Origin: an uncultured bacterium
GTDB taxonomy: Bacteria; Hydrogenedentota; CAZGCA01; CBFDCQ01
Direction: 5' to 3'
DNA: 64,000 nucleotides
Assembly (NCBI GenBank): GCA_965603355.1
Contig: CBFDCQ010000001.1
Location: forward strand, 42,350-106,349
This document shows positions 10,067 to 36,184 of this stretch, one piece after another. Every line of letters starts with the position of its first letter. The first letter of the stretch is position 1. The translations under genes and the position numbers were made by a program. The notes beneath the pieces were generated by a model, which was not told the DNA's origin, ran no database searches, and worked only from the letters and a program-made list of their open reading frames with translations.

Positions 10067-10088
10067 GGCCCCGGAGGTACGGGAGCTG

Positions 10089-10889
10089 TTGGAAACGGAC
10101 ATGATTCGGAACAAAAGAAAAGAGGTTGTCGGGCTCGCGCTCTTGCTGACGGCCATCGTGACGGCCGGTGTGTTCTTACACACCGCGGACTGCGAACCGC
10201 TTTCTACCGCTGAGACAACCCTGTTTATCGAAGCAAACATGGCTTACGAGAAGAACGATTTTGCCACGGCGGCGCAGAAGTACGAACAGATCGTCGCCGC
10301 CGGACTCGAGCCCGGCGAGATACTTTACAATCTCGGCAACTGCTATTTCAGAATGGGCGAGCTGGGTATGTCGATAGTCTACTACGAGCGTGCCAGAACG
10401 GTAATGCCTAGAGATCAGAATCTGCTGACGAACATTCTCCTCGCAGACTCGCGAGCGCTGGACAAGATCACACCGCCGAAGGTATGGGCGGTCGCCCGGA
10501 AGCTCTTTGTCTGGTGCCGGATGCTGACGGCACGCGAGATTTCCTTGATCTTCATTGCGGCGAACGCGGCATTCTGGGCGAGCCTTGCCGCGTTTGCGAT
10601 CGCGAAGAACCGTTTTGTCAAGATAGCCGTCGTACTAGCCGGTATTATTCTTATACTGTCGGGGACCTCTTATGCACTCGGCTGGACTGAGCGTCGCGGT
10701 CTCGGCACAGCAGTCGTCGTGGCCGATGAGGCGGAGGTCCGGACAGGTCCCGGCAACTATGCGGTTACGTTCAAGCTGCATGACGGCACGCGGCTCAAGC
10801 TCGTTGATTCGCGTGAGGAGTGGTATCAGATCAGGTTGGCTGACGGCAAGAGAGGGTGGATACAAACCGGAGAAGTCGAGAGGATATAA
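10089..10889 (+). CDS. batE: BatE: TPR repeats, TM helices and a C-terminal SH3b domain
   Basis: TPR motifs (ANMAYEKNDFATAAQKYEQIV, LYNLGNCYFRMGE), TM helices, and the C-terminus VVVADEAEVRTGPGNYAVTFKLHDGTRLKLVDSREEWYQIRLADGKRGWIQTGEV resembles SH3b. Confidence 0.7.
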   Translation: METDMIRNKRKEVVGLALLLTAIVTAGVFLHTADCEPLSTAETTLFIEANMAYEKNDFATAAQKYEQIVAAGLEPGEILYNLGNCYFRMGELGMSIVYYERARTVMPRDQNLLTNILLADSRALDKITPPKVWAVARKLFVWCRMLTAREISLIFIAANAAFWASLAAFAIAKNRFVKIAVVLAGIILILSGTSYALGWTERRGLGTAVVVADEAEVRTGPGNYAVTFKLHDGTRLKLVDSREEWYQIRLADGKRGWIQTGEVERI

Positions 10890-10945: not shown

Positions 10946-11035
10946 ACACCGCACGGAGGTTCTTGGTAAGATTATTGGTTCAATTGAGAGGATGCGCGCC
11001 GCATGGGCGGCGCGCCAAGAAGGGAGGTACCTGGA

Positions 11036-12505
11036 ATGACGAGAGGGATTGGGAAATCAACCGTGGTCCGCTGGATACTGGTTCTGGCGGTTTTGACCAC
11101 ACTGTTTGCGTTTGGGCTGCGCACGGGAGCGACGGCGCGGGCGGCAGCGCGAGGTGTCGACTTGCTGAAGCAGCTGGATGAAGCCTACGTGGAGATCTGG
11201 GAGAGGGTTGCGCCGGCTGTTGTTAATGTTGACACCAGCCGCGAGATAACTCTTCCCGGACCTTCCCCTAGTGTCAGGCGATTCTTCGATGATTTCGGCA
11301 TCGACCACCCCGATCAACCACGGACCATACCGAGGCTGGGACGGGGTTCAGGCTTCGTTATTGATAAGAAGGGATACGTTTTGACAAACCTTCATGTCGT
11401 CGAAGGGGCCGACAAGATCAAGGTCCGGTTCTCGAAAAAGGAGGAACCGTACAAGGCCAAGCTCGTCGGTACGGACAGTGATACAGAGATCGCGCTGATC
11501 AAGATAGAACCGAGGGGCGATCTGCCGGTTGTCGCGCTGGGCGATTCTGGCAAGCTTCGCGTTGGTCAGATAGTTATGGCAATAGGTAATCCGGCGGGAG
11601 TGCTTGAAAGGACCTTCACAGTGGGTCATGTCAGCGGGCTCGGTCGTTTCCTGCCGGAGTTCGCAGCACAAATGCGATTAGCGGCCAGCAATTTCATCCA
11701 GACGGATGCCGCAATCACCTTCGGCAACAGCGGCGGACCACTGGTCAACGTGGACGGCGAAGTTATCGGGATCAACACGGCATGGGCACCCGGCGGAGAG
11801 AATATCGGGTTCGCGGTGCCGATAAATTTCGCAAAGGAAATCCTGCCCGACCTCAAGAAAAGGGGAAAAGCTTTCCGAGGGCATCTCGGCGTTGAGGTCA
11901 AGCCGATAAAACCTGGTGCGGGAAAGTTGCTTGGTCTGCCGGATGATGGAGGAGCGCTCGTTCAGAGGGTGGTACCTGGTTCTCCCGCGGATAAAGCCGG
12001 ACTCCAGCAATACGACGTGATCACCGAGGTAAACCGGCAGAAGATCAGCTCATCGCCGGACCTTGTTGAAGTGGTAACGCATCTGCGACCGGGAACCACC
12101 GTGCGCGTGACATTCTTCAGGAACAGCAGGCGGAGCAGTGTCCGGGTGAGACTCACCGACCGGTCAGATGAAACAACCGAAAAGGAAGTAATCGCTGAGG
12201 CAAAGACCGAAGAGACGCTAGGCATGACGGTTGAGGAGATAACAAGCGACGCAGCGCGGCGCTTCGACATAAAGGAGGAAAAGGGCGTTGTCGTTACGGA
12301 CGTTGACTTGTCGGGTCCTGCAGCGGAACAAGGCGTAAGACCGGGTGACGTCATACTGGAAGTCAATCGCAAGCCCGTGGAAAGCGTGGCGGAGTTCCGC
12401 AAGGCTGTCGGAGAAATCGAGCCGGGTGACTGGGTCATGCTGCTCCTGAGCCGTAAGGGAGAAACGTCGATCGTGTTCGTCCGGAAACCCCAGGCTGACA
12501 AGTAG
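11036..12505 (+). CDS. degP: periplasmic serine endoprotease DegP/HtrA (trypsin domain plus two PDZ domains)
   Basis: RBS AAGGGAGG lies 9 nt before the ATG at 11036. Signal-anchor RWILVLAVLTTLFAFG, catalytic motifs including TNLHVV (His), IALIKI (Asp) and GNSGGPL (Ser), and two PDZ-like C-terminal repeats. Confidence 0.9.
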   Translation: MTRGIGKSTVVRWILVLAVLTTLFAFGLRTGATARAAARGVDLLKQLDEAYVEIWERVAPAVVNVDTSREITLPGPSPSVRRFFDDFGIDHPDQPRTIPRLGRGSGFVIDKKGYVLTNLHVVEGADKIKVRFSKKEEPYKAKLVGTDSDTEIALIKIEPRGDLPVVALGDSGKLRVGQIVMAIGNPAGVLERTFTVGHVSGLGRFLPEFAAQMRLAASNFIQTDAAITFGNSGGPLVNVDGEVIGINTAWAPGGENIGFAVPINFAKEILPDLKKRGKAFRGHLGVEVKPIKPGAGKLLGLPDDGGALVQRVVPGSPADKAGLQQYDVITEVNRQKISSSPDLVEVVTHLRPGTTVRVTFFRNSRRSSVRVRLTDRSDETTEKEVIAEAKTEETLGMTVEEITSDAARRFDIKEEKGVVVTDVDLSGPAAEQGVRPGDVILEVNRKPVESVAEFRKAVGEIEPGDWVMLLLSRKGETSIVFVRKPQADK

Positions 12506-12544
12506 CACGGCGTTCCGCTCGGCGCAAGTGAAAGTCGAAAAGGT

Positions 12545-12564
12545 AGGGCGGGCGTCTCGCCCGC
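12545..12564 (+). other. GC-rich stem-loop between degP and rarA
   Basis: GGGCGGGCG-tct-CGCCCGCC, followed by the purine-rich run GGGGAGGGAGAGGAGC directly before the in-frame GTG at 12588. Confidence 0.4.
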
Positions 12565-12587
12565 CGGACGAGGGGAGGGAGAGGAGC

Positions 12588-13925
12588 GTGGCGGACCTGT
12601 TTGAGGAGGAGGAGCGCGTATCGGCGGCGGACTTCCCGCTTGCGCGGCGGATGACTCCCCGTGACCTGTCGGAGTTCGTCGGGCAGGAGCACCTGCTGGG
12701 CAAAGGCAAGATACTGCGCCGCGCTATCGAGTCCGACCGGATACGTTCGCTGATCCTTTGCGGCCCGCCCGGCAGTGGCAAGACAGCGCTCGCCAGAATC
12801 GTCGCCAGACGAACGAAATCCGCCTTTGAGACTCTCAACGCAGTGACTTCCGGCGTGAAGGAGCTCAGAGATCTCATATCCGCCGCAAAGCAGCGGAAAC
12901 GTGCCGCCGGCAAGAGAACCATCGTCTTCATAGACGAGATACACCGGTTCAACCGCGCGCAGCAGGACGCGCTGCTACCGGACGTCGAGATGGGCTCGAT
13001 CACGCTAATCGGCGCCACGACGCAGAATCCCTTTTTCTCCATTGTAGCTCCGCTCTTGTCGAGGTCGCAGATCTTCGAGCTTGAACCGCTGACGGAAGAA
13101 CAGGTCGGGACGATCCTTCGTCGCGCAGTCGGGGACAAGCAACGCGGCTTCCCAGACGCGGAGGTCGATCTCACACCTGAGGCTTTGGACCATCTCGCGC
13201 GTTACGCCAACGGGGATGCGCGCGTCGCGCTGAACGGCCTGGAGATAGCGGTTCTTACCACGCCGCCGGACAAACGCGGCAAGATCATGATAACGCGCGA
13301 GGTAGCGGAGGAGTCCATCCAGAAGAAGGCGGTCGTCTACGACGGCACAGGCGACGACCATTACGATACCGCCTCAGCTTTCATCAAGAGCTTGCGCGGT
13401 TCGGATCCGGACTCCGCGCTTTACTGGCTTGCGAAGATGCTTGATGCCGGGGAAGATCCTCGGTTCATCGCCAGGCGCATAGCGATTGCCGCCGCCGAGG
13501 ATGTTGGCAATGCCGACCCTCAGGCGCTGGTCGTCGCCAACGCGGCCTGGCAGGTGTGCGAGTTCATCGGCATGCCGGAAGCCCAGATACCGCTCGCTCA
13601 AGCCACCGTCTACGTCGCGACCGCACCGAAAAGCAACGCCTCGTACATTGCTCTCGGCAAGGCAAGGAAAGAGGTACAGGAGGAAGGGACTGTTCCCGTG
13701 CCGCGCCACCTGAAGGATGCCAACTATCCCGGTTCCAAACGACTCGAACGCGGGAAGGGGTACCTGTATCCGCACAACCACGAGGGAGGGATTGTGGAGC
13801 AGTTCTACGGTGTCGAACAGGGGCGATACTACTCGCCGACGGGCCGAGGGTATGAGGCGGAAATTGCAAAGAGATTAGAGGAAATTAGAGAGAGTATCAG
13901 GAAGAACAAGCCTGAGACTCCCTGA
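12588..13925 (+). CDS. rarA: replication-associated recombination protein A (RarA/MgsA, AAA+)
   Basis: N-terminus VADLFEE...PLARRMTPRDLSEFVGQEHLLGKGK parallels the E. coli RarA N-terminus. Walker A GPPGSGKT, Walker B VFIDEIHRFNRAQQDALL, and a MgsA_C-like C-terminal domain. The start was moved to the GTG after the hairpin and RBS; the track ORF begins at 12528. Confidence 0.85.
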   Translation: MADLFEEEERVSAADFPLARRMTPRDLSEFVGQEHLLGKGKILRRAIESDRIRSLILCGPPGSGKTALARIVARRTKSAFETLNAVTSGVKELRDLISAAKQRKRAAGKRTIVFIDEIHRFNRAQQDALLPDVEMGSITLIGATTQNPFFSIVAPLLSRSQIFELEPLTEEQVGTILRRAVGDKQRGFPDAEVDLTPEALDHLARYANGDARVALNGLEIAVLTTPPDKRGKIMITREVAEESIQKKAVVYDGTGDDHYDTASAFIKSLRGSDPDSALYWLAKMLDAGEDPRFIARRIAIAAAEDVGNADPQALVVANAAWQVCEFIGMPEAQIPLAQATVYVATAPKSNASYIALGKARKEVQEEGTVPVPRHLKDANYPGSKRLERGKGYLYPHNHEGGIVEQFYGVEQGRYYSPTGRGYEAEIAKRLEEIRESIRKNKPETP

Positions 13926-21452: not shown

Positions 21453-21482
21453 TTGACAGGTCGTGGTTGACGATGCTAGTAT
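21453..21482 (+). promoter_or_regulatory. candidate strong sigma-70 promoter for the peptidase gene
   Basis: TTGACA, an 18 nt spacer, then TAGTAT. This leaves a roughly 285 nt leader before the ATG at 21775. Confidence 0.4.
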
Positions 21483-21774
21483 CAACTCGACGTCGAGAAC
21501 CCCGTTGGGGGGATTGGGAGGGTCCAAATAGCTTCTCCGTTATCCAGAGCGGACGCCTACCGTGGAGAACGCTGTGGGGCAAGCTGATGATGGAGTCCGG
21601 CAGTCTCAGTACAGCCCGCGATGAATTCAGTACGCACTCGGCGCGTGGCAAGCGCAAAGAACAGTCATTTCCGCAAGAGTGCGCTTCTTCGAGAGATCTC
21701 TTTCTTGCATCGCGATTCCCGCGTGATCTTCTGATGATCGGTCGAGGGACGATACAGAATTGAGGAGAATAGCC

Positions 21775-24315
21775 ATGACGAGGGGGATACCGTTCAGCGT
21801 CCGTTTTGTTCCTGCGATTTCCGTTCTGATGCTGGTTATATTGTCGCTTGGCGTTGCCGAAGCTCAGGAACCTCCGGCCAAGTGGACGTTCATGGTTTAC
21901 ATGGACGGGGACAACAACCTTGAAACGGACGCTATCCAGGACTTCCTCGAGATGGCGCAGGTCGGCTCGAGTGACGACATTGACATAGTGGTTCTTTTCG
22001 ACCGAATAGACGGGTATGACTGGACCCACGGGGACTGGACCGCCGCGAGGTTGTTCCATATAGAGCAGAACGAGCTGCCTGAGGCCACCGAGGGGGTCAG
22101 TTGGGGAGAAGTTAACATGGGGGACCCGCAGACGCTGGTCCAGTTTGTTACTTCGGCGGCGGCAGACTACCCGGCCGACAACTATGCACTTGTGCTGTGG
22201 AACCATGGAGGCGGGTGGCGTAACCGCGCAGAGCAAAAAGCGGGAAACGCACCTTTCAAAGACGTATGCTGGGACGATACGAGCATGGACGTCCTTCATA
22301 CGTATGAACTCCGACAAGCCCTCGAGGAAATCCAGACGACCGTGGGCACGATCGACCTCATCGGGTTCGACGCCTGTCTGATGGCGATGCTCGAGGTCGC
22401 GTACGAGCTCCGGAATCACGGCGATGTTATGGTTGCGTCCGAAGAGGTTGAACCGGTTGCCGGTTGGGCGTACGACGACGTGCTCCGCGACCTTGCCGCT
22501 GACCCGCTGATGACGGCAGCCCAGCTGGGACAAGTTATAGTGAACCGGTACGCCCAAGAGATGGCGTGGTTCTCAGGACACACAGTTTCCACGATCGACC
22601 TCAGCGAGGTACAGGATCTCGCTGACCGGGTGGACACGCTTGCGGAAACGCTCAGCGCTCACTGGGAGGACGATCAGGACGCAGTCAAAAGCGCGGCAAC
22701 TGATGTAATGACCCAGGTCGAGCAGACGGTCATTCACGAGCTCCACGGAAGCTCGTCGCCGGGCAGCCACGGTCTGGCGATCTACTTCCCTGAAGTGCAG
22801 TACATGTTCGACCCGAGCTACACTGGAACGACGATCTTGTTCGCGCTGGACACGCAATGGGACGATTTTCTCTCGAGCTTTTACGGTACGATGCAGCGCT
22901 CATGGGTGAGAACCGCAAGAGTCCTTGCGCAATTCTACGAGTGCCTGTACTACGAGCATGTCGACCTGTACGATTTCTGCTCTCAGCTCGTGAACTACGC
23001 TCCACCGACCATCGAGTACGAGGAGTCGCTCGTCACAAACGAGTTCATCGGGGGCGGCGAGCCACAATTATGGTGCGACGATGAGTGGTGCTGGCGTTAC
23101 GTTCTCCCCTTTCCGTTCCCGTTCTTTGGGGAGGAGGAAACAGCCGTATGGATTTGCTCCAACGGATACCTCGATTTCACAAGCAGTGAGTCTGAATGGG
23201 TAAACTGGGCTCGTGGATTAGTCGAGAATAAGCGCATTGCACCATTATGGACGGACCTTGATACGACGTCTTGGGGTGATATTTACATTCATCAGCCTAC
23301 ACCGGACTCGGTCTGCATTCGTTGGGAAACGGAGGAATATGGTGCCTTCGGTCTCGTCAACGTGGAGGTTGTGCTTTACCGCAACGGGACTATCAAGTTC
23401 AACTATGGGTCTGACAACACGACTCTGGGCGAATCGTTCGTCTGGACGTGGGGTGCCTACTGGGCGCCAACCATAGGGCTCTCAAACGGCGATGGCCTTA
23501 ATATGCACTATTCCGAGTACGACTCCCGCTCCAATCTAACAGGAGTCGACACCGTGGTATGGACGCCCCCTATAGTGGATTCAGATGGCGACGGTCTGCT
23601 CGACTCGGTGGAAACCAACACTGGCGTGTACGTCGACGAGAACGACACCGGCACGGATCCTGACGAGCCGGACACCGACGGCGACGGTCTTACCGATTGG
23701 GATGAGGTGCACACTTATCCCTGCGACCCGAACGACGCGGACACCGACAACGACGACCTTGAGGACGGCGAGGAGATTAACACGCACGGGACCGACCCGG
23801 ACGACGACGACTCGGACGACGACACTTACACTGACGGAGAGGAAGTCGCAGCGAACACGGACCCTCTTGACGCGAGTTCGATGCCTTCCGGCAGACGCGC
23901 CGCGCCACCGCCGCCGCCGCCCGCACCGGTACGTGGTCATCACAGCGACAGCGGAATAGAAAAGCTGAATCCGTGCTTCATCGCCACGGCGGCGTACGGC
24001 ACACCGACGGCCGACCAGGTGCGCACGCTCCTAGAGTTCAGGGACACTTATCTGTTGACCAACCGCGCAGGTTGCGCTCTTGTGAGAACATACTATAGGC
24101 TAAGTCCACCGGTGGCAAGATTCATAGAAGGTTGGCCGTCAGGCAAGAAGCTGGTACGCGCCGCTCTGACACCGGTTGTCCTGGTGGCACGCGTGGCACT
24201 CAATTCACCAGTCGCTTGCGCGGCAGCCTTCGCGGCGGCGGTCGCGCTGTCCTTCTCGCTGACGGCATTCCCGGTTTCGCGCGTCCGGCGCCGGCGACGT
24301 ATACGACGCAGTTGA
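21775..24315 (+). CDS. secreted clostripain-like cysteine peptidase (C11 family) with Ca-binding TSP3-like repeats and a C-terminal CFIATAAYG sorting-like domain
   Basis: RBS GAGGAG before the ATG at 21775. Signal peptide. C11 hallmarks: FMVYMDGDNNLE, catalytic His in LVLWNHGGGW and catalytic Cys in IGFDACLMAM. Aspartate-rich DxDxDG repeats (DSDGDGLLD, DTDGDGLTDWDE, DADTDNDDLEDGEE). The C-terminus has PCFIATAAYGTP...LLEFRDTYLL, then a hydrophobic helix and RRRRRIRRS. Confidence 0.8.
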   Translation: MTRGIPFSVRFVPAISVLMLVILSLGVAEAQEPPAKWTFMVYMDGDNNLETDAIQDFLEMAQVGSSDDIDIVVLFDRIDGYDWTHGDWTAARLFHIEQNELPEATEGVSWGEVNMGDPQTLVQFVTSAAADYPADNYALVLWNHGGGWRNRAEQKAGNAPFKDVCWDDTSMDVLHTYELRQALEEIQTTVGTIDLIGFDACLMAMLEVAYELRNHGDVMVASEEVEPVAGWAYDDVLRDLAADPLMTAAQLGQVIVNRYAQEMAWFSGHTVSTIDLSEVQDLADRVDTLAETLSAHWEDDQDAVKSAATDVMTQVEQTVIHELHGSSSPGSHGLAIYFPEVQYMFDPSYTGTTILFALDTQWDDFLSSFYGTMQRSWVRTARVLAQFYECLYYEHVDLYDFCSQLVNYAPPTIEYEESLVTNEFIGGGEPQLWCDDEWCWRYVLPFPFPFFGEEETAVWICSNGYLDFTSSESEWVNWARGLVENKRIAPLWTDLDTTSWGDIYIHQPTPDSVCIRWETEEYGAFGLVNVEVVLYRNGTIKFNYGSDNTTLGESFVWTWGAYWAPTIGLSNGDGLNMHYSEYDSRSNLTGVDTVVWTPPIVDSDGDGLLDSVETNTGVYVDENDTGTDPDEPDTDGDGLTDWDEVHTYPCDPNDADTDNDDLEDGEEINTHGTDPDDDDSDDDTYTDGEEVAANTDPLDASSMPSGRRAAPPPPPPAPVRGHHSDSGIEKLNPCFIATAAYGTPTADQVRTLLEFRDTYLLTNRAGCALVRTYYRLSPPVARFIEGWPSGKKLVRAALTPVVLVARVALNSPVACAAAFAAAVALSFSLTAFPVSRVRRRRRIRRS

Positions 24316-26536: not shown

Positions 26537-27898
26537 ATGTCAGCATCGTTTTCTATCCTTGTAGTAGATGATGAGGAGGTTATGCGCGACTGTTGCGTGC
26601 AGATCCTGTCCCGAGACGGATGCCGCGTTGAGGTGGCCCACGACGGACTTTCCGGGCTTGAGAGAATAAGGAAGGAGCCGTTTGACGTAGTCATACTGGA
26701 TTGGAAAATGCCGGGCCTGAACGGACTGGACCTGCTTGACCGGATCGCGCAAACAAGCGCGGATACTGTTGTGATAGTAATGACGGGTTACGCTTCAGTC
26801 GAATTTGCAGTAGAGGCAATGAGGCACGGCGCGTACGACTTCATACCGAAACCGTTCCCGCCACGGGTACTTCGCGGGATAGTGGCGCGCGCTCTGGAAA
26901 AGCGCGGCTTCGCCAGGGATACGGTTTGTCCACCGAGCGAGCTTGAGACGTTGCGCGGCGTAGACTCTCTTGTTGGAGAGAGCGTCGTCATGAAAGCTAC
27001 AAAACAGCTCGTTAAACGCGCCGCTGCCACCGACAGTACTGTGCTGATCGCCGGCGAGAGCGGTACGGGCAAGGAACTGGTTGCGCGCGCACTGCACCAT
27101 CACAGTGCGCGCAGAGATGGTTCGTTTGTCACGGTCGATTCCGGCGGGTTGGTCGAGAACCTTATCGAGAGCGAACTCTTTGGTCACGTCAGAGGAGCTT
27201 TCACCGGGGCCACGTCTACTCGACAGGGCAGGTTCGAACTCGCTCATGGCGGAACACTGTTCCTGGATGACGTATCCACCCTTGGCTGGTCCGTCCAAGG
27301 AAAGCTCTTGCGCGCCTTACAGGAACGTGAGATTACAAGAGTCGGCAGCGGCCAGGTCATCAAGGTGGACGTGCGAATTATCGCCGCGACAAACAGCGAC
27401 CTGCTCTCCGACGTGGCCGCGGGAGGATTCAGAGAGGACCTTTTCTACCGGCTAAGTGTAATCCCGATCAATCTGCCGCCACTACGGGAGCGCAAGGAGG
27501 ATATTCCTCATCTCGCCAGCTTCTTCCTGAGAAAGTACAACGCCAAGCGTGCCGCAACCAAGGTCAGGAGCATCTCGGAAGAGGCGCTCAGGATGCTTGC
27601 TGACTACGATTGGCCCGGCAACGTGAGGGAGCTCGAAAATGTCATAGAGCGCGCGGTGGTAATGGCCGATAGCGAGACGGTCCGACCGCTCGACCTCGTC
27701 TGGCACCAGTTCTCATCCGCGGTTAGCCTCCGCGGCGCGCGGTCGGCCGGCGCGCGCCTTGAGGATATCGAAAAAGAACATATCAAGAGAACCTTGGCAA
27801 CGTTCAACAGGCACAAGGCCAAGACGGCTGACGCTCTCGGTATTGACCGCAAAACGCTCCGGAACAAGATGCGACGGTACAATATTGAGGAAGATTAG
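26537..27898 (+). CDS. sigma-54-dependent response regulator (NtrC family: REC, AAA+ sigma-54 activator, Fis-type HTH)
   Basis: REC segment ILVVDDEEVMRD...VILDWKMPGLNG, Walker A GESGTGKE, GAFTGA motif (RGAFTGATS), Walker B LFLDDV, and a C-terminal HTH (KTADALGIDRKTLRNKMRRY). Confidence 0.9.
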   Translation: MSASFSILVVDDEEVMRDCCVQILSRDGCRVEVAHDGLSGLERIRKEPFDVVILDWKMPGLNGLDLLDRIAQTSADTVVIVMTGYASVEFAVEAMRHGAYDFIPKPFPPRVLRGIVARALEKRGFARDTVCPPSELETLRGVDSLVGESVVMKATKQLVKRAAATDSTVLIAGESGTGKELVARALHHHSARRDGSFVTVDSGGLVENLIESELFGHVRGAFTGATSTRQGRFELAHGGTLFLDDVSTLGWSVQGKLLRALQEREITRVGSGQVIKVDVRIIAATNSDLLSDVAAGGFREDLFYRLSVIPINLPPLRERKEDIPHLASFFLRKYNAKRAATKVRSISEEALRMLADYDWPGNVRELENVIERAVVMADSETVRPLDLVWHQFSSAVSLRGARSAGARLEDIEKEHIKRTLATFNRHKAKTADALGIDRKTLRNKMRRYNIEED

Positions 27899-28056: not shown

Positions 28057-28075
28057 CTGGCACAAAAAATGCTAA
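28057..28075 (+). promoter_or_regulatory. candidate sigma-54 (-24/-12) promoter
   Basis: cTGGCAC-aaaaa-aTGCt compared with the consensus TGGCAC-N5-TTGCW. The GG and GC are correctly spaced and sit about 55 nt upstream of the 28127 start. Confidence 0.5.
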
Positions 28076-28126: not shown

Positions 28127-29278
28127 ATGGAGATTAGTGGTGCAACTGTCCTCGTCATTGACGACGAGGAATCGATGCGCGATTCCTGTTATCAGGCGCT
28201 GACGAAGGAGGGGTATCGTGTCGAGACGGCGGTGGACGCGGAGAGCGGCTTGCGCAAGGTGCGCGAGTTATCTCCCGACATCGTGCTCGTGGACCTCAAG
28301 ATGCCCCGCGTTGGTGGAACGGAAGTGTTGAAAGAGATAACCGCAATAGACCCGACGATCGTTGCAGTAGTGATCACGGGTTACGCAACGGTCGAATCGG
28401 CGGTCGAGGCCATGAAATGCGGCGCATACGATTTCCTTCCCAAACCTTTCACTCCGGACGAGCTCCGAATCGTCACGAAAAGAGGCCTGGAAAAGCGACG
28501 GCTGAGTGTCGAAATGGAGGCTCTTCGCAGGGAAAATGAGAGGATGAGAGAGAACTTCGTGACGGTTGTCACGCACGAAATGAGAGCGCCGCTGGTCGCG
28601 GTCGAACAGTACCTTGAAGTGATGCTGAAAGAGATGGCGGGCGATGTCACCGAGAAGCAGAAGGAGATACTCGAGCACAGTCGCAAACGAGTCGAGTGGC
28701 TGCTTACGCTGGTGAACGAATGGCTGAGCATGTCTCGCATCCAGCGGGGGAAAATAGTCGAGAGCCTCGAGACGGTAAAGATGCGGGAACTGCTCGAAGA
28801 ATCGGCCGCCCTGGTCAAGCCCCAAGCTGACGAGAAGGATATCAATATAGAGATCGAGGTGGCGAACGGAGCCGAGTCAATTGAAGGCGACATGGACGCT
28901 CTGAGCCACGTTTTCATGAATCTGGTGAGCAATGCGGTTAAGTACAACCACGAGGAAGGTTCTGTTTGCGTCAGAGCGATTGACAAGGACGATAGCATTG
29001 CCGTGGAGGTTGAGGACACGGGCGTGGGGATTCCCGAAGGTAGCTTGCCGTTCATTTTCGATGAGTTCTTCCGGGTAAAAACCGACGAAGGGCGGCGCGT
29101 GACGGGCACGGGTCTGGGATTAACGGTTGTCAAGAGGATTGTCGAGGCCCATCGCGGTCATGTGACCGTCAAGAGCGCTGTAGGACAAGGCACCACGTTT
29201 GTTGTGTTCTTACCGAAGAAGCAAACGATAGCGGAGCCGGGCATGGCAGAGAAGACCGGCAGCGTGAGTGAATCATAA
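28127..29278 (+). CDS. hybrid response-regulator/histidine kinase (REC, HisKA, HATPase_c) with no sensor or TM domain
   Basis: REC segment VLVIDDEESMRD...VLVDLKMPRVGG, a coiled coil, H-box VVTHEMRAPLVAVEQY, N-box NLVSNAVKYN, and G-boxes DTGVGI and GTGLGLTVV. Its stop overlaps the start of the next gene (TAATG). Confidence 0.85.
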   Translation: MEISGATVLVIDDEESMRDSCYQALTKEGYRVETAVDAESGLRKVRELSPDIVLVDLKMPRVGGTEVLKEITAIDPTIVAVVITGYATVESAVEAMKCGAYDFLPKPFTPDELRIVTKRGLEKRRLSVEMEALRRENERMRENFVTVVTHEMRAPLVAVEQYLEVMLKEMAGDVTEKQKEILEHSRKRVEWLLTLVNEWLSMSRIQRGKIVESLETVKMRELLEESAALVKPQADEKDINIEIEVANGAESIEGDMDALSHVFMNLVSNAVKYNHEEGSVCVRAIDKDDSIAVEVEDTGVGIPEGSLPFIFDEFFRVKTDEGRRVTGTGLGLTVVKRIVEAHRGHVTVKSAVGQGTTFVVFLPKKQTIAEPGMAEKTGSVSES

Positions 29279-30333
29279 TGAATACGCGGTTCATCTCTGA
29301 AGGCAATTTTGTCAGACTACTGGATCATCTGGCCGAACGCGGTCGAGTGTTCGTGGCGGAGCCGGTCGAGGACACCGGAAAGATAGCTTTTCGCGCCCGT
29401 CAAGAGGGTGAGGGTTTCGATTACACCGGTTTTCGCGCGACCCAGTCGCTCAAACCGTTCTTGTTTGTTGCGAGAGAGAAGGTGGCGGAATATCCCTGCG
29501 CGGCTGGGTCCGAGACGGTTCCTGCTGCGGAGCACGTGACCGTGGTAGGGGCGGCGGCGTGCGACCTTGCGGCGTTGAAGACCCTCGACGCAGTCTTCAT
29601 CTCTGAGGATTTTACGGACTGTTTCTATGCGGAGCGGAGGGCAAACACGCTGATCATCAGCATGGAGTGCACGGATCCACGCGACAGCTGTTTTTGCACG
29701 CTCATCGGCAATAAGCCGTATCCGGAAGCCGGATATGACCTGAACCTGGCGAAGGCCGGTGCCGGATATGTCGTCGAGGTGGGGTCCGAGAAGGGAGAAA
29801 GCCTCATCGGTGAACAGGCGTCTCTGTTTAAAGATGCCTCTAAGGAAACGCTCGCCGCGCGGGACAAGGCTCGCGAAGAGGCGGCGCGTCGAGTCGAGGA
29901 TATCAATCGCGGCGTTGAAGTGAGCAGGTCGCGACAAGAGATCCTGAAGCACGCTCCGGAAGATGAGGAATGGCACTCTCACGTGCAAACCTGCGTCGAG
30001 TGTGCAGCCTGCCTCTTCTGCTGTCCGACGTGTCACTGCTTCTTGCTTTACGACCAGAAGGGCGCGGAGAACTTCGAGCGGTTGAAGGTCTGGGACGCCT
30101 GTGTGTATGCAGGATACTCGCGCATGGCGGGTGGCGGGACGCCTAGAGCGTTTCTCGTGGAACGGTTCAGACACCGCTACGCGCACAAGTTCGACCAGAT
30201 TGTCGAGAGGCACGGTATTGAAGGTTGTTCGGGCTGCGGCAGGTGCATAGAAGCCTGTCCCGGCAACATTGACATGCGCAAAGTGTTCAAAGCCCTTGAC
30301 TCTGCGGCGTTAACCGAGAAGGTTGCGAGATGA
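29278..30333 (+). CDS. HydB/AsrA-like 4Fe-4S protein (sulfhydrogenase beta / anaerobic sulfite reductase A family)
   Basis: Cys clusters CVECAACLFCCPTCHCF and CSGCGRCIEACPG. The N-terminal 'ratio' domain and the 351 aa length fit HydB/AsrA-type subunits. Confidence 0.7.
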   Translation: MNTRFISEGNFVRLLDHLAERGRVFVAEPVEDTGKIAFRARQEGEGFDYTGFRATQSLKPFLFVAREKVAEYPCAAGSETVPAAEHVTVVGAAACDLAALKTLDAVFISEDFTDCFYAERRANTLIISMECTDPRDSCFCTLIGNKPYPEAGYDLNLAKAGAGYVVEVGSEKGESLIGEQASLFKDASKETLAARDKAREEAARRVEDINRGVEVSRSRQEILKHAPEDEEWHSHVQTCVECAACLFCCPTCHCFLLYDQKGAENFERLKVWDACVYAGYSRMAGGGTPRAFLVERFRHRYAHKFDQIVERHGIEGCSGCGRCIEACPGNIDMRKVFKALDSAALTEKVAR

Positions 30334-31145
30334 ACAATCTGTATTCCCCGATTCAGGCGCAAATCGAGGAAATCATAAAAGAGACGCCGACCAACAAGAC
30401 GTTCGTCATTCGGCCGGAAGCGCCGATACGTTTCAAGGCGGGCCAGTTCATGCAGCTCACGGTACCAGGCATGGGCGAGGCGCCGTTCACCCCCTCATCG
30501 TCGCCGGCCGTGACCGAGAAGATGGAGATCACCATACTCAAGACCGGCACGGTGACCGATGTGCTCCACACGATGCAAGCGGGAGATAACGTCGGATTGC
30601 GCGGCCCGTTCGGGAAAGGCTACCCGCTGGACAAGTTCGAGAACAAGGAGGTCCTGGTGGTCGGTGGCGGAGTGGGACTGGCCCCTCTGAGATCACTGAT
30701 TCTGGCTATGTTCGAGGATATGGGAAAGTATAAGCGGCTCTCGATAAAATATGGTGCGAAGACGCCGGAGGAGCTGCTTTTCAGGACGAGTTTCGACGAA
30801 TGGTCCAAGAAGCCGCAAACGGATCTTACCGTAACCATCGACGTTCCGGCGCCCGGATGGGAGGGCAAGGTAGGGCTCGTCACGAGCCTGCTGGACGATG
30901 TCGACGTGGACAAGCCCAACAGCTATGTCGTCTCCTGCGGGCCGGGCATCATGCTGCGGTTCGTGACGTATAAGCTTCTCGAAATCGGATTCGAGCCGGA
31001 ACAGATATACTTGTCGATGAACAGGAAAATGAGCTGCGGTGTCGGCAAGTGCGGCAGATGCGAGGTCGGACCGTACTATCTATGCAAAGACGGTCCGGAT
31101 ATGAACTACGCGAAGATTAAGGACGTGCCAAACGTTTTCAGTTGA
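30330..31145 (+). CDS. HydG/AsrB/PyrK-like FAD/NAD(P)H-binding oxidoreductase with a C-terminal [2Fe-2S] site
   Basis: FAD-binding barrel (RFKAGQFMQLTVPGMGEAPFTPSS), nucleotide-binding GGGVGLAPL, and a C-terminal C..CGVGKCGRCEV cluster motif. 4-nt overlap with the upstream gene. Confidence 0.8.
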   Translation: MNNLYSPIQAQIEEIIKETPTNKTFVIRPEAPIRFKAGQFMQLTVPGMGEAPFTPSSSPAVTEKMEITILKTGTVTDVLHTMQAGDNVGLRGPFGKGYPLDKFENKEVLVVGGGVGLAPLRSLILAMFEDMGKYKRLSIKYGAKTPEELLFRTSFDEWSKKPQTDLTVTIDVPAPGWEGKVGLVTSLLDDVDVDKPNSYVVSCGPGIMLRFVTYKLLEIGFEPEQIYLSMNRKMSCGVGKCGRCEVGPYYLCKDGPDMNYAKIKDVPNVFS

Positions 31146-31169
31146 GGGAACCTCGAACAGGTAGTTGAG

Positions 31170-32588
31170 ATGGTTGAGTCAAGAAAAAACATTTGCCTTC
31201 TCTGCTCGCTCGGTTGCGGCCTGATAGTTGATCTGGAATGCGACGAGCCGGTCAACCTCGAGTATGACACGGAAAATGGCGTGAACCGAGGCAAACTGTG
31301 CGCGAAAGGTAATTACATTCTGGAGCTGCTGAACGACCCCTTGCGTCTTGATGTGCCCAAGAAAGACGGCAAACCGATCAGGTGGGAACAGGCGGCAGAT
31401 GAGGTGGCGGATGCCCTGCGTGCCGTTCAGGGCGGCAAGACTGCGGCCGTCGTGCTCTCCGGTGATGCGTCGTGCGAGGACGTCGGGTTGGCCTTTGCGT
31501 TTGCAGCCGATTGCACCGGAGCCGGCAAAGCTGCGATAAGTCTCCCCACCGGCGACGATAAGGTGGTGTCAGCACTCGCGGAAACGTCCGGCGGCGTTGC
31601 GCAGGCCACTCTGGACGATGTCGAGAACTCCGTGTGCACGATCGCCGTGGGGGATCCGTTTGCCAGATGTCCCGTTATAGCCGGGAGAGTTCTTGCCGCG
31701 CGAAATGCGGCCCGCGAGAACTCTCTCAACGTGGTCTCTCGAGAGAGCAACATGACGTCGCGGTTCGCTGCGACCCACCTCCTTGGACCCGAGCGAGATA
31801 GCATGCTGGATCTTGTTGCCGCAGTGGTGGAGGCGCGGGGCGGCGCGAAGGAAAAGTGGTTGAATCAACTGGTCAAGGGCGTGGATGCCGGTTCGGACGC
31901 GCAGAAATTGGCGAAGAGCTTCGTTGAGTCCGAGCGGGCGGTAGTGGTGTTGTCCACGGACGATCCGGTGGTCGCACAACTGGCGAACGCTCTCGTCAAG
32001 GCTGCCGGCGACACGAAGGGACTTTTCGCGCTGCACGATTACGGTAACGCGCGCAGTATTGCGGAGATTTCATCCGGTGACGTTTCGGCCGAGGACGTGA
32101 TCAAGTCTGCGGCCCGTGGGGAGATAGAGGTTCTGCTCGTACTGGGGGCAGATCTCGTGTCGTCATATCCGAACCTGGATGTGAACGGAGCGCTGTCTGA
32201 AGTGCAACTGCTTGTTGCGGGAGCACCGTTTCCGAACAAGACGACATCTCTGGCCGGCATGGTTCTGCCGACTGCGCTGTGGATCGAGCAGGATGGCACG
32301 TTCAATGGTGCTCAATGCCAGCGGGTCGTCGCCCCACCTGGAGGTGCAATGTCGTATGGCGACATACTGAAGGCCGTCGCCAAAGCGACGGGCGTTGAGT
32401 TGCGTGCACACGAAGCGCCAGAAGCGCTCGCGGAAGCGGCCCTTGACGAGGGCAAGGCGGCGGCAATTGCTAAAGCGGCTCGCGAGGAGGCAGTGACATC
32501 ACCCGTCGTGTCGACGGCAACGTGTTTTGCGGACGGTTCCCTAACGGACAGAGTGAGTTGGGTTAAGATGGTAGAAAGAGTTCCGTGA
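31170..32588 (+). CDS. FdhA/NuoG-like molybdopterin-oxidoreductase-family protein, short form (472 aa)
   Basis: N-terminal 4Fe-4S motif CLLCSLGCGL...C-x3-C (CAKGNY) typical of the MopB Fe4S4 domain, then the start of a MopB-like domain (PIRWEQAADEVADAL). About 250 aa shorter than catalytic FdhH/FdhA. Confidence 0.6.
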   Translation: MVESRKNICLLCSLGCGLIVDLECDEPVNLEYDTENGVNRGKLCAKGNYILELLNDPLRLDVPKKDGKPIRWEQAADEVADALRAVQGGKTAAVVLSGDASCEDVGLAFAFAADCTGAGKAAISLPTGDDKVVSALAETSGGVAQATLDDVENSVCTIAVGDPFARCPVIAGRVLAARNAARENSLNVVSRESNMTSRFAATHLLGPERDSMLDLVAAVVEARGGAKEKWLNQLVKGVDAGSDAQKLAKSFVESERAVVVLSTDDPVVAQLANALVKAAGDTKGLFALHDYGNARSIAEISSGDVSAEDVIKSAARGEIEVLLVLGADLVSSYPNLDVNGALSEVQLLVAGAPFPNKTTSLAGMVLPTALWIEQDGTFNGAQCQRVVAPPGGAMSYGDILKAVAKATGVELRAHEAPEALAEAALDEGKAAAIAKAAREEAVTSPVVSTATCFADGSLTDRVSWVKMVERVP

Positions 32589-33077
32589 ATGAAGAAGCTG
32601 TTTGTAGATCTCGATCTCTGCATAGGATGTCAAGCACATAGCGTCGCCTGCAGTCGCGTAAACCACGACATCCTGACGATGCAGAGCGGCGAGATACCGG
32701 AGGAAGGCACGCTGCCTGTCGTGTGCAGACACTGCGAGACCGCCGCGTGCGTCGCTGCTTGTCCGAACGAGTCGATGAAGAAGCACGAGGACGGCATCGT
32801 TAGGAGAAACATGGCGACATGCACCGGCTGCATGAGCTGTACGCTGGCGTGCCCGTTCGGGACGCTGACTCGCGGCATGAGACTGGCCCGGCACTCGTCG
32901 AGCAAGTGCGACCTGTGCGCGCCGAGGGTAGAACGCGGGCTTGAACCCGCCTGCGTTGCGACGTGTCCCACAAGCGCGCTACAGTTTAGAGAGGTTGAAG
33001 AGGTCTACGAGGCGAAAGACGTTCTCGTGGTGGGAGCACATACAATCGGACATAGCCCGTACATAAGGAGAGCCTAG
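32589..33077 (+). CDS. HycB-like poly-ferredoxin (4x [4Fe-4S])
   Basis: CIGCQAHSVAC, CRHCETAACVAACP, CTGCMSCTLACP and CDLCAPR...CVATCP. Size and cysteine spacing match HycB/HyfA. The ATG overlaps the previous stop. Confidence 0.8.
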   Translation: MKKLFVDLDLCIGCQAHSVACSRVNHDILTMQSGEIPEEGTLPVVCRHCETAACVAACPNESMKKHEDGIVRRNMATCTGCMSCTLACPFGTLTRGMRLARHSSSKCDLCAPRVERGLEPACVATCPTSALQFREVEEVYEAKDVLVVGAHTIGHSPYIRRA

Positions 33078-33096
33078 CGGGAGAAGCCCGCGTGAA

Positions 33097-34035
33097 TTGG
33101 TGAGGATGATGAGTGCATTTGGCGTACCATATTTCCTGGCTGTGTTCGCCGTAACGGCTGTTGTAGGACTGGTGACGAGCTGGGTGGACAGAAAAGTCAC
33201 CGCGCGGGTGCAAGCGCGGGTTGGTCCGCCGTGGTTCCAACCGTTTGCGGATTTCGTGAAGCTGCTAGGCAAAGAGACGCTCGTGCCCGAAGGCAGCCGT
33301 CAGAAAGGCTTCCTCGTCGCGCCGCTGTTGGCACTCGTTGGCGTGTCGCTTGGCGCGGCGGCGCTCGTGTCAGGAGGTGTACTTGGCAAGGAAGGCTTTA
33401 TCGGAGACATAGTAGTTGTGCTGTACCTGCTCACGATACCGTCAGCGGCGCTGATACTCGGCGCGGCCTCGACCGGCAACCCTATGGCGTCTGTCGGGGC
33501 GAGTCGCGAGATGAAGCTCATACTCGCGTACGAGCTGCCGTTCCTTATCGTAGTGCTTACGGCCGTGTACAAAGCGCAGGCCGGTTTCATGATCGACAAG
33601 ATCGTGGACTACCAGGCTCAGAACGGCGCGTTCATATGGAGCATTTCGGGAGTCATCGGGTTCATCGTTGCGATACTGTGCATTCAGGGCAAGCTGGGGT
33701 TGGTGCCGTTTGACGCGCCGGAGGCTGAGCAGGAGTTGATGGGCGGTGTTCTTACAGAGTACTCCGGCGTCCCGCTGGCGCTGTTCAAGCTCAGCAAAGC
33801 GATGATGCTGAGCGTTCTGACAGTCTTTCTGGCGGTCATATTCTTTGGCGGAATGCAATTCAAGGGCATCGATATCCTGTGGAGTATCTTGAAGTATCTC
33901 GTGCCGGTAGTGCTGGTGGTCTTGATCAGAAACACGAACCCGAGGTTGAGGATTGACCAGATAATGAAGCTGTTCTGGGGTCCGCTTACGGTGCTGGCCC
34001 TGATCGCTCTGTTGCTGGCAAGGTTCAACCTCTGA
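33097..34035 (+). CDS. membrane subunit NuoH/HycD/MbhM-like
   Basis: Polytopic membrane protein, 312 aa, with a conserved NuoH-like segment (GLVPFDAPEAEQELMGGVLTEYSG). Confidence 0.85.
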   Translation: MVRMMSAFGVPYFLAVFAVTAVVGLVTSWVDRKVTARVQARVGPPWFQPFADFVKLLGKETLVPEGSRQKGFLVAPLLALVGVSLGAAALVSGGVLGKEGFIGDIVVVLYLLTIPSAALILGAASTGNPMASVGASREMKLILAYELPFLIVVLTAVYKAQAGFMIDKIVDYQAQNGAFIWSISGVIGFIVAILCIQGKLGLVPFDAPEAEQELMGGVLTEYSGVPLALFKLSKAMMLSVLTVFLAVIFFGGMQFKGIDILWSILKYLVPVVLVVLIRNTNPRLRIDQIMKLFWGPLTVLALIALLLARFNL

Positions 34036-34055
34036 TCTTTATGGAGTGAAGCGTT

Positions 34056-34487
34056 ATGAGCGTTAAGATGTGGGGACTGAAGAAGTCGCCCTGGGTGTAC
34101 CACGTAGCGCTGTCACCCTGCAATAACTGCGACATAGAGATACTCGACCTGCTGACTCCGAGATTCGATGTGGAACGTTTTGGAATAAAGCTCGTGGGCA
34201 GTCCCAGACACGCTGACGCCCTGCTTGTTACCGGATCCGTAAACCGGCACGTTCTCCCCAGGTTTGTCGAGCTATACAAGCAGACGGCGAAACCGTGCGT
34301 GGTGTTCGCGATAGGCTCCTGCGGTCTGTCATCGACTATGTTCAGAGATAACTACAACATCGTCGGCCCCATTGACAAGGTCGTGAGACAGATCGATCCT
34401 AACGCCATCATCGCGTACGTGCCGGGATGTCCGCCAAAACCGGAGGCGATGATCTCCGGAGTGGTCAAGGCGCTGAGCGTGTTATAG
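34056..34487 (+). CDS. [NiFe]-hydrogenase small subunit, NuoB-like (HycG/MbhJ/EchC-type)
   Basis: SPCNNCDIE (compare HycG SCNGCEIE), GSCG and GCPPKPE provide the four Cys of the proximal [4Fe-4S]. Confidence 0.85.
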   Translation: MSVKMWGLKKSPWVYHVALSPCNNCDIEILDLLTPRFDVERFGIKLVGSPRHADALLVTGSVNRHVLPRFVELYKQTAKPCVVFAIGSCGLSSTMFRDNYNIVGPIDKVVRQIDPNAIIAYVPGCPPKPEAMISGVVKALSVL

Positions 34488-34499
34488 GAGAGGTGAAGT

Positions 34500-34955
34500 A
34501 TGAGTGGTAGCGTCGCGCTGACAGCGGTCAAAGAGAGCATGCCGGCAAAGATTTTGGAAATCGTGGAGAGATCTCCCGCGCGCGCATACGTATACATTGC
34601 GCCGGAGGAGATAGTCGCAGCGTCGCGGTTCATGTTCGAGGAGTGCGGTGTGCGGCTCGCCACGGTGTCCGGTGTAGACACGAGGAGCGGCATCGAGCTG
34701 GTTTACCATTGGATGAGCGCGAAGGACCATCAGTTCATCATGATCAAGACAAAAGTCAAGAAACCGTTCCCGGAAATAGACTCGGTCGGCTCGTTTCTGC
34801 CGGCGGCGGTTTGGATTGAGAGGGAAATCCACGACATTCTGGGTGTGGTTTTCAGAGGGCACCCTGATTTCAGGAAACTCATTCTTTCAGATGATTGGCC
34901 TGAGGGAATCCACCCCTATAAGCGCGGCGTGAGATTCGGGGAGTTTAAGGCATGA
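34500..34955 (+). CDS. NuoC-like subunit (MbhK/EchD-type)
   Basis: 151 aa NuoC/30-kDa-subunit fold (LVYHWMSAKDH...WIEREIHDILGVVFRGHPD). Overlaps the large-subunit gene by 4 nt. Confidence 0.8.
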   Translation: MSGSVALTAVKESMPAKILEIVERSPARAYVYIAPEEIVAASRFMFEECGVRLATVSGVDTRSGIELVYHWMSAKDHQFIMIKTKVKKPFPEIDSVGSFLPAAVWIEREIHDILGVVFRGHPDFRKLILSDDWPEGIHPYKRGVRFGEFKA

Positions 34956-36184
34956 AAAGGACGATAGTACCGCTCGGCCCGTTTCACCCTCTGCTGGAGG
35001 AGGCGGAGCATTTTCAGCTTTACGTCGAGGGTGAAACTGTCGTTGACATAGACATGCGCATCGGCTACATGCACCGTGGAATTGAGAAGATGAGCCAGTA
35101 CAAGACGTTCGACCAAGTACCTTTCACCGTCGAGCGCATCTGCGGCATCTGCTCCACCTCCCACCCGATAGCCTATGTGAACGCCGTGGAGGACCTCGCG
35201 GGAATAGAGATCCCAGAGAGAGCGAAGTATATCAGGAACATCGTCGCCGAGCTTGAACGGTTGCATAGTCACATGTTATGGGTGGGACTCGCCGGTCACT
35301 TCATCGGGTACGATACGGTGTTCATGTGGGCCTGGAAATATCGGGAGCCGATTCTCGACATCTTCGAGCTAATAAGCGGCAATCGCAACCATTATGCTAT
35401 GATGAAGCCCGGCGGTGTCAGACGCGACATCAAGGAGGAGGATTTCCCTGCGATAATCTCGATGCTCGACACGCTGGCTAAGGGCAATGAGCTTTTCACC
35501 GGCGCGGTCGTGGATGACCCGGTAATTCACGCGAGGACAAAAGGCGTCGGAATCCTGAGTAAGGAGGATGCGATTTCCTACGGTACTGTCGGGCCCACTG
35601 TGCGAGGTTCGGACATATCTGATGATATTCGGACGGATGACCCGTACGCGGGTTACGACCTGGTCGATTGGGACGTGATCACGTACGAGGGAGGAGACGT
35701 GTTCGCCAAAGCGGCAGTAAGGTTGCTGGAGAACTTCGAGTCGATCAAGATCATAAGGCAAAGCCTCGAGAAGATGCCGCCCGGACCGATTGAGACGGAA
35801 GTCAGGGAAATACCGCCCGGCGAGGGCGTCGGTCACGCGGAAGCGCCGCGCGGCGAGGTGTTCCATTATGTGCGCAGCGACGGGTCGGCCTGTCCCGTGC
35901 GACACAAGATTCGCGCGCCAAGCTTCGTGAACATACCGTCGTTCAAAGCTACCTGCATCGGCGAGACTATAGCCGATGTCGCTCTTATCACGGCTTCGGT
36001 TGACCCGTGCTATTGCTGCACCGAACGGATGGCGGTGGTTGACCGACAAACTGAGGACGTTCTCATGTCCGGCGAAGAGTTGGTGCGCATGAGCCGGGAG
36101 AAGACCAAAGAGATCAAGGAGGGGCTTGGGCAGGAAACGCCCATTGACAAGCTTGCCCGTAAACTGCAGAGAGGAGAGTTGTAG
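34952..36184 (+). CDS. [NiFe]-hydrogenase large subunit, group 4 (NuoD-like; MbhL/EchE/HycE-type)
   Basis: N-terminal Ni-Fe ligand motif RICGICSTSH and C-terminal DPCYCCTER (DPCxxCxxR), both intact. 410 aa. Confidence 0.9.
   Translation: MKRTIVPLGPFHPLLEEAEHFQLYVEGETVVDIDMRIGYMHRGIEKMSQYKTFDQVPFTVERICGICSTSHPIAYVNAVEDLAGIEIPERAKYIRNIVAELERLHSHMLWVGLAGHFIGYDTVFMWAWKYREPILDIFELISGNRNHYAMMKPGGVRRDIKEEDFPAIISMLDTLAKGNELFTGAVVDDPVIHARTKGVGILSKEDAISYGTVGPTVRGSDISDDIRTDDPYAGYDLVDWDVITYEGGDVFAKAAVRLLENFESIKIIRQSLEKMPPGPIETEVREIPPGEGVGHAEAPRGEVFHYVRSDGSACPVRHKIRAPSFVNIPSFKATCIGETIADVALITASVDPCYCCTERMAVVDRQTEDVLMSGEELVRMSREKTKEIKEGLGQETPIDKLARKLQRGEL

Follow-up and report, generated by a model that had tools for sequence, protein, structure and literature searches.

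The gene studied here lies in a 64-kb stretch of contig CBFDCQ010000001.1 from an uncultured bacterium of the Hydrogenedentota (the window, meaning the whole 64,000 nucleotides analyzed). It encodes a C11 peptidase of 846 residues whose C-terminus carries a CFI-box, a domain with the motif CFIATAAYG. Our results indicate that the product is probably an exported protease, held on the cell envelope by an interchangeable CFI-box cassette. The chain is ordered as a catalytic head, a NIDO-like beta domain, a flexible stalk of about 130 residues, and the cassette itself, which consists of a 69-residue four-helix CFI-box domain, one transmembrane helix, and an Arg-rich tail.

The protein is a member of two known families with curated models, and the CFI-box was not discovered here: it is already a curated, named domain. 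About 29,000 cluster representatives of it occur in archaea and many bacterial phyla, yet no Pfam model, structure, paper, or partner was found. The present analysis adds four things: the CFI-box is modeled as a folded four-helix domain; it occurs in transmembrane-anchored and transmembrane-less forms; it is swapped among unrelated passengers within lineages; and it adjoins genes like those of the type II secretion system (T2SS) in several diderm phyla. If its invariant Cys were a processing or attachment site, the domain would represent a new and very widespread route of cell-envelope decoration.

Domain architecture of the protease

The search against Pfam revealed a match to Peptidase_C11 (PF03415) over residues 41–309, with 198.9 bits against a cut-off of 25.8 (E 2.4e-58). 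Together with the PDB match, conservation, and the model, it places the C11 (clostripain-family) domain at residues ~35–410 (21877..23004; this and all further coordinates within the gene are on the plus strand). Clostripain (PDB 9CIP) was found by sequence at E 2.4e-27, and its NHGGG and FDACLM motifs aligned with H144 (22204–22206, within LVLWNHGGGW) and C201 (22375–22377, within IGFDACLMAM). An AlphaFold2 model was built on an alignment of 31 relatives. The Foldseek comparison of this model with 9CIP gave E 5.5e-19, and the one with 6N9J a TM-score of 0.62–0.65 normalized to the target, both having a caspase-like alpha/beta fold. H144 and D199 were invariant among the 31 relatives, and C201 was kept in at least 90% of them. 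The original prediction of a C11 peptidase with intact His and Cys is thus borne out by Pfam, by 9CIP in both sequence and fold, and by conservation: the protein is a C11 cysteine endopeptidase with an intact His/Cys dyad. The NCBIfam clostripain equivalog TIGR02806 failed (108.5 bits against a cut-off of 550), and the protein is therefore a member of the C11 family and no clostripain orthologue.

The S1 residue D199 is present two residues before C201 and, on this basis, the putative protease probably has Arg/Lys specificity. C11 enzymes are self-cleaved in a basic loop between the catalytic His and Cys. Loop 145–160 (WRNRAEQKAGNAPFKD), which is of low confidence in the model and has Arg and Lys, we take to be the position of this cleavage.

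A predicted Sec-type signal peptide occupies residues 1–30 (21775..21864). It has an n-region with R3 and R10, the h-region FVPAISVLMLVILSLGV, and a c-region AEA|QE, where the cleavage site was placed by eye with the A-x-A rule; residues 12–29 form a helix in the model. Behind the peptidase domain, residues ~416–600 (23020..23574) form an all-beta domain, absent from the original prediction, that was modeled with a predicted local distance difference test (pLDDT) score of ~90. Its match to NIDO (Pfam PF06119) was weak, with 16.6 bits, below the cut-off of 25 (E 0.008); the relatives P0054 (41 bits) and P0053 (38.9 bits) passed this cut-off.

The stalk starts with acidic repeats of the bacterial TSP3 type (DxDxDG) at residues ~601–700 (23575..23874), about 4–5 units that were recognized by profiles and are disordered in the model. 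TSP3_bac (Pfam PF18884) matched three stretches with 24.5 bits, just below the cut-off of 25, and reached 62.9 bits in the relative P0052 (52% identical); the repeats read in the original prediction are probably of this type. An NCBIfam match to CglD derives from the same repeats, which are putatively Ca-binding. A low-complexity linker follows at residues 701–733 (23875..23973; pLDDT <50), with PPPPPPAP at 711–718.

The last part of the protein is the cassette. NCBIfam NF041770 (CFI_box_CTERM) matched with 86.6 bits against a cut-off of 40 (E 7e-25), with profile positions 1–69 on residues 734–802 (23974..24180), and it was also matched by all 35 aligned relatives. The sequence PCFIATAAYGTP stands at residues 733–744 and FRD at 754–756. 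After the domain come a predicted transmembrane helix at residues 813–834 (VACAAAFAAAVALSFSLTAFPV; 24211..24276), with a Kyte-Doolittle hydropathy of 2.0 and a helix in the model, and the Arg-rich tail SRVRRRRRIRRS, read from the sequence at residues 835–846 (24277..24315 with the stop codon). By the positive-inside rule, this tail is predicted to be cytoplasmic. All of the motifs quoted in the original prediction were found in the protein, and orthologues at 62%–82% identity preserve the full architecture, tail included.

An AlphaFold2 model of the last 126 residues, built on the 35-sequence alignment, was all-helical with a mean pLDDT of 85. It consists of the short CFIATAA helix, three longer amphipathic helices (residues ~746–760, 764–786, and 788–808), and the transmembrane helix, with the motif Cys 79 residues before the latter and 113 residues from the C-terminus. 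According to this model, the CFI-box is a folded four-helix domain and no short tripartite signal.

The CFI-box domain and its carriers

In a search with a profile of 24 diverse CFI-box copies, 29,260 cluster representatives (clustering at 50% identity) matched with E ≤ 1e-3, and 21,992 of them reached E ≤ 1e-10. An exact-motif scan of species-representative genomes found at least 599 stretches, 589 of which were confirmed. The CFIATAAYG box is therefore a recurrent C-terminal module, as stated in the original prediction. No Pfam family matched the tail even at E ≤ 1, and no PDB relative of the CFI-box was found by sequence or by fold. A literature search on the motif and on NF041770 returned no relevant paper, and we found no function assigned to the model.

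Among the 24 diverse copies, the C, F, A, T, A, and G of the motif were invariant. So were the R and D of FRD, one Gly, one Tyr, an S-P pair, one Ala, and one Arg elsewhere in the domain. The residue before the Cys was Gly in 63% of the distinct tails (169 of 270), often as the end of a Gly run. A transmembrane helix followed the box in 177 of these tails (66%), usually with an R/K-rich end; 83 (31%) ended 76–92 residues past the Cys and had neither transmembrane helix nor basic cluster, and the remaining 10 had a non-hydrophobic extension.

The locus analyses rest on the best 80 CFI-box loci. These belong to Dehalococcoidia and other Chloroflexota, Omnitrophota, Nitrospirota, Hydrogenedentota, Desulfobacterota, Aminicenantes, NC10, Planctomycetota, Elusimicrobia, Saccharibacteria, Proteobacteria, and Entotheonella, with one archaeal locus from Methanophagales. 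Most complete carriers had signal-peptide-like N-termini; a crude count of 106 in 181 is not meaningful, as most of its "negatives" are fragments at contig edges. The passengers are unrelated to each other and include C11, SBBP, beta-helix, PKD, BNR, InlB-B, and DUF7948 proteins.

The exchange of passengers was visible within a single lineage. One tail type, "LLTNRAG...YYR[LF]SPPVARFI", was found on the SBBP propellers P0001 and P0302, on the beta-helix protein L086/L088, and on two tandem proteins of L087 that have TSP3 repeats directly before their box. The same tail subtype is thus carried by at least five passengers, and the sharing of the box with other proteins, on which the original prediction depended, is confirmed in the same lineage. 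Some metagenome-assembled genomes (MAGs) had two or more of the best 80 loci, and tandem pairs occurred in L017, L045, and L087. In the window and ~20 kb of flanks, the protease had the only copy; a six-frame search by regular expression and hidden Markov model found no second CFI-box there. The slot itself can be filled differently: the C11 relative P0147 has the curated IPTL-CTERM in place of the CFI-box, and other C11 relatives have tails of a transmembrane helix plus RRR.

Internal CFI-boxes were seen in five of 146 top representatives. We considered them as evidence against C-terminal specificity and rejected this, as they look like fused tandem genes, because in the three examined (P0167, P0179, and P0290) a transmembrane helix and a basic cluster come after the box and lead into a further start that resembles a signal peptide. 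In these three and in L087:1–4146 (plus strand), two successive CFI-box genes stand in one frame with no stop between them; such sequences would be hairpin polyproteins with two passengers or else gene calls that were fused.

A minor zinc-ribbon subfamily (P0026, P0040, P0043, P0045, and P0046) has an acidic or zinc-ribbon N-terminus, a short box, and no signal peptide. Two of its small members were located at L090:6001–6564 (P0026) and L092:6001–6339 (P0043). One of the two stands among archaeal housekeeping genes (TFIIB, S8e, and S27e), and the other is in a run of small unannotated same-strand open reading frames that appears virus- or mobile-element-like. Such carriers argue that the CFI-box domain is not confined to exported proteins.

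Three further observations concern C-terminal ends in the same set of proteins. In the Dehalococcoidia loci L003–L020, the segment that leads from the CFI-box domain to the transmembrane helix of long-form tails includes a conserved "VAVNTTPAEK", which contains an N-x-T sequon; this sequence may be a clade-specific glycosylation or recognition site. Seven C11 relatives (P0055, P0119, P0123, P0127, P0132, P0143, and P0156) share a very short, recurrent end "...P(I/L)LxLLL(G)(D/N/E)" with no transmembrane helix after it, which could be another uncharacterized C-terminal tag; NCBIfam sorting-signal models gave no match on P0055 and P0143, the two examples scanned. Finally, C11 relatives of ~470 residues (e.g., P0096, P0100, and P0104) and the end of P0052 have a conserved C-terminal module of ~45 residues, "TLAEAV.AA..G.TICIKPGSS.ETL.I.K.L.LRACGG...IG", and this module replaces the CFI-box in many close relatives, the TSP3-rich P0052 included.

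For the neighbors of CFI-box genes, crude calls of open reading frames in the 80 loci were compared by all-against-all BLAST and clustered. No gene recurred in more than five loci. A CFI-box gene directly adjoined T2SS-like genes in seven of the 80 loci, from five phyla, a count made without a control set, for which our own rough estimate of the chance expectation is one or two loci. A GspC-like gene with T2SSC plus PDZ domains was immediately downstream in L009, L021, L046, and L077; the secretin, GspF, and GspE adjoined the CFI-box gene in L035, and two MshEN ATPases in L051; in L056, it stood within a row of GspD, pseudopilin, and GspC-like genes. The passengers differ between these loci, and for this reason the CFI-box proteins look like cargo and not like parts of the machine.

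Gene, neighborhood, and host

The open reading frame runs on the plus strand from 21760 (TTG) or 21775 (ATG) to 24315. A Shine-Dalgarno sequence, GGAG, was read from the sequence at 21764..21767 (plus strand), 7 nt 5′ of the ATG, and its placement supports ATG 21775 as the start codon rather than TTG 21760. Public gene calls agree on the product of 846 residues, and the gene is present in at least nine metagenome contigs, the longest of which is ENA ERZ25073487 NODE_24 (182.9 kb). The gap upstream of the gene has 345 bp and contains a sigma70-like promoter candidate at 21453..21482 (plus strand; TTGACA, an 18-nt spacer, TAGTAT, and a TG extension) with 10 of 12 matches, which is a consensus match only and no proof of function. 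No intrinsic terminator was found 3′ of the gene, and the Rfam search of the window gave no match.

On one side, the gene is flanked by a Bmp/ABC transporter, and on the other by a pair formed by a Cache histidine kinase and a sigma54 regulator. This order is kept at the orthologue P0051 (62% identity), the one orthologue locus examined. Control of the protease gene by the adjacent sigma54 regulator was considered and is unsupported: no sigma54 −24/−12 site was found upstream of the gene, and the count of −24/−12-like sites across the window is at chance level. The regulator (26537–27898) more plausibly serves the hydrogenase cluster than the protease gene. That cluster, of the Mbh/Mrp-type energy-converting [NiFe] hydrogenase, belongs to a plus-strand stretch at 28127–43105 that also has a response-regulator/kinase gene and a formate-dehydrogenase-like molybdopterin enzyme; just 5′ of it, at 28058–28073, there is a sigma54-like −24/−12 site with one mismatch.

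A complete T2SS operon (GspD, M-like, K, pseudopilins, F, and E) was recognized from gene families on the minus strand at 47334–59618, 23 kb from the protease gene and not adjacent to it. A lipid A acyltransferase and a TPR-SLT lytic transglycosylase (43146–47101) adjoin this operon. The secretin and T2SS, the lipid A acyltransferase, and the lytic transglycosylase encoded in the window identify the host as a diderm. For the GspE of the window, the closest named relatives came from Candidatus Hydrogenedentes (76%–80% identity), and our placement of the host as Hydrogenedentota-like rests on these relatives. At the other end of the window, a plus-strand operon of the aerotolerance type (BatA-BatD, MoxR, and DUF58; 1228–10889) is followed by HtrA (11003–12505) and MgsA (12528–13925).

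Role of the cassette and comparison with known systems

The reading that we favor, an exported protease held by its tail, would work as follows. Sec would export the chain, and the transmembrane helix with the basic tail would act as a stop-transfer sequence, leaving the CFI-box domain on the outer face of the cytoplasmic membrane. The protease would be a zymogen until loop 145–160 is cut. The CFI-box cassette would be an interchangeable envelope-anchoring or sorting module of many unrelated exported proteins, and an envelope anchor or sorting cassette is most likely what the tail is. As to which, the largest share of our confidence, not quite half of it, goes to a permanent anchor or retention domain, and a smaller one, near a third, to a cassette that is cleaved or modified by a partner; the rest falls to other roles.

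Several points weigh against this reading. The literature search found no experimental datum on any CFI-box protein, and the export and topology of the protease are predictions. Since the host is a diderm, a C-terminal inner-membrane anchor alone would keep the protease periplasmic. The cell-surface destination proposed in the original prediction is an inference, as such an anchor would leave the enzyme on the periplasmic face of the inner membrane. For a protease whose TSP3 and NIDO-like modules are of an adhesin-like kind, a periplasmic location would be unexpected, and a further sorting step may exist. In addition, the core function of the CFI-box is not simply that of a transmembrane anchor, because 31% of the tails have no transmembrane helix and the zinc-ribbon carriers have no signal peptide. 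Lastly, a motif of nine residues that hardly varies between archaea and bacteria speaks for chemistry or recognition more than for mere packing.

It is possible, and we propose it tentatively, that the CFI-box is an orphan pan-prokaryotic envelope-sorting system of undescribed design. The Cys, located ~65–80 residues upstream of an optional transmembrane anchor, would open a conserved four-helix "handle" that would be processed by an undiscovered enzyme or by itself; in diderms, this handle might pass cargo to T2SS-like machines, given that seven of the 80 CFI-box genes adjoin GspC, GspD, GspE, GspF, or related genes. If this were true, the protease, which is easily assayed, would be a convenient reporter cargo. 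Its own locus offers no partner gene that makes the function of the CFI-box directly testable.

A true sortase-type signal is the next explanation, one that we consider rather unlikely even though much of the tail resembles such signals. A dedicated enzyme, similar to exosortase/archaeosortase, rhombosortase, or myxosortase/CPBP, would cut at the CFI motif and attach the newly formed C-terminus of the passenger, or the Cys, to a lipid or envelope polymer; in a diderm, transit across the outer membrane could follow, possibly through a T2SS. As a test list, we used the eight attributes of C-terminal sorting signals given by Haft (2023; bioRxiv 10.1101/2023.06.07.544157), and the CFI-box tail has most of them. 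It is located near the C-terminus, has an invariant motif, belongs to proteins with signal peptides (the zinc-ribbon carriers being the exception), is borne by unrelated passengers, and has homologues with another signal, here the curated IPTL-CTERM. Several copies per genome occur in other MAGs, tandem pairs included. The transmembrane helix of 66% of the tails, with its usual R/K-rich end, and the CFI-box genes beside T2SS-like genes in seven of 80 loci also agree with a sortase-type signal. The Cys is likewise invariant in MYXO-, JDVT-, Synerg-, and CGP-CTERM (bioRxiv 10.1101/2023.06.07.544157).

The geometry, however, is a different one. In the known tripartite signals, the motif abuts the transmembrane helix directly and the whole signal is small (bioRxiv 10.1101/2023.06.07.544157), and this arrangement, of the LPXTG, PEP-CTERM, PGF-CTERM, and MYXO-CTERM type, was not found here, where a conserved four-helix domain of ~65 residues parts the two. 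An intramembrane active site could reach a motif 79 residues away from the helix only if the helical domain folded back, and this intervening part shows high conservation and a confident fold in the model, which sets it apart from the dispensable segments of known signals. The 31% of tails with neither transmembrane helix nor basic cluster are also against such a signal. No gene family other than the T2SS parts in seven loci recurs beside the 80 CFI-box genes, and no sortase, exosortase, rhomboid, or CPBP Pfam family was among the genes listed in ~85 kb around the protease gene. The spread over archaea, monoderms, and diderms would demand an equally widespread enzyme. Of the exosortase- or archaeosortase-like architecture stated in the original prediction, the transmembrane helix, the Arg cluster, and most attributes remain; the spacing, the folded domain between, the transmembrane-less tails, and the zinc-ribbon subfamily do not fit it. 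Its remark that no processing enzyme is assigned agrees with our searches, as none was found in the literature or in the 80 loci.

The CFI-box could also be a docking or oligomerization domain that gathers its carriers, or brings them onto a partner, on either side of the membrane, with the transmembrane helix of the long form as an independent add-on. PDZ domains bind C-terminal peptides, and in four loci the gene that directly follows the CFI-box gene encodes a GspC-like PDZ protein. The compact bundle of amphipathic helices in the model, the occurrence with and without a transmembrane helix, and the small zinc-ribbon proteins with no signal peptide, one of them in an archaeal housekeeping neighborhood, are consistent with this role. 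We nevertheless regard it as improbable: a box that stands strictly at the C-terminus and has a Gly-rich linker is suggestive of a terminal signal, extracellular-type passengers predominate, and nine near-invariant motif residues exceed what a docking helix usually needs.

Very improbable, and purely speculative, is a self-processing module, with Hedgehog/intein-like chemistry on an unrelated fold, in which an N-to-S acyl shift at the first-residue Cys would give a thioester that is resolved by a lipid or envelope nucleophile, so that the helical domain is released and the passenger is tethered covalently. Locally, the G-C-F of the CFI-box is similar to the site at which Hedgehog is cleaved. 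The domain invariably starts with Cys, preceded by Gly in 169 of 270 tails, the whole 69-residue domain is strongly conserved and also present with no transmembrane helix, as would fit an intrinsic activity, and no partner enzyme was found in the 80 loci; but the fold is all-helical, with no Hint beta fold and no PDB relative by fold or sequence, and the invariant residues (C, F, A, T, A, G, R, D, G, Y, S, P, A, and R) include no His or obvious general base.

Compared with the Hint domains of Hedgehog proteins and inteins, the CFI-box also opens with an invariant Cys, usually after Gly (G-C-F). It is all-alpha and has 69 residues, and not the beta fold of ~150 residues; a TxxH-type motif is missing, and no homology to them was detected. 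The all-helical model, the lack of an invariant His, and the lack of a PDB relative place it outside this group, and only the Gly-Cys-Phe junction is alike. Tripartite sorting signals differ in being short, whereas the CFI-box module has ~113 residues, and in having a transmembrane helix and a basic cluster, both of which about a third of the CFI-box tails do not have.

The Vibrio protease VesB is a cargo of the GlyGly-CTERM/rhombosortase system and is linked to the T2SS. It resembles the protein studied here, which is likewise a protease of a T2SS-bearing diderm, is predicted to be exported, and ends in a membrane-spanning tail. The GlyGly motif of GlyGly-CTERM proteins (Haft & Varghese, 2011; PMC3237569) is missing from our protein, and the genes listed in the ~85 kb around it include no rhomboid gene. 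A further difference is that the CFI-box is present in monoderms and archaea as well, and these have no T2SS.

With clostripain and the C11 peptidases of gut Bacteroidales (PDB 9CIP, 6N9J/6NAG, 6MZO, and 3UWS/4YEC), the protein has in common a caspase-like fold, a His and a Cys in the motifs NHGGG and DAC, an Asp two residues ahead of that Cys, and a basic loop between the two catalytic residues. Its identity to the solved enzymes is 17%–26%, and it differs from them in having ~440 additional C-terminal residues, which comprise the beta domain, the TSP3 stalk, the CFI-box, and the transmembrane helix. From the proteins annotated by NF041770 as "CFI-box-CTERM domain-containing protein", it shows no difference at the level of the domain, which is full-length, C-terminal, and has the CFIATAAYG motif; with its transmembrane helix and Arg-rich tail, it represents the long form to which the majority of the tails (66%) belong.

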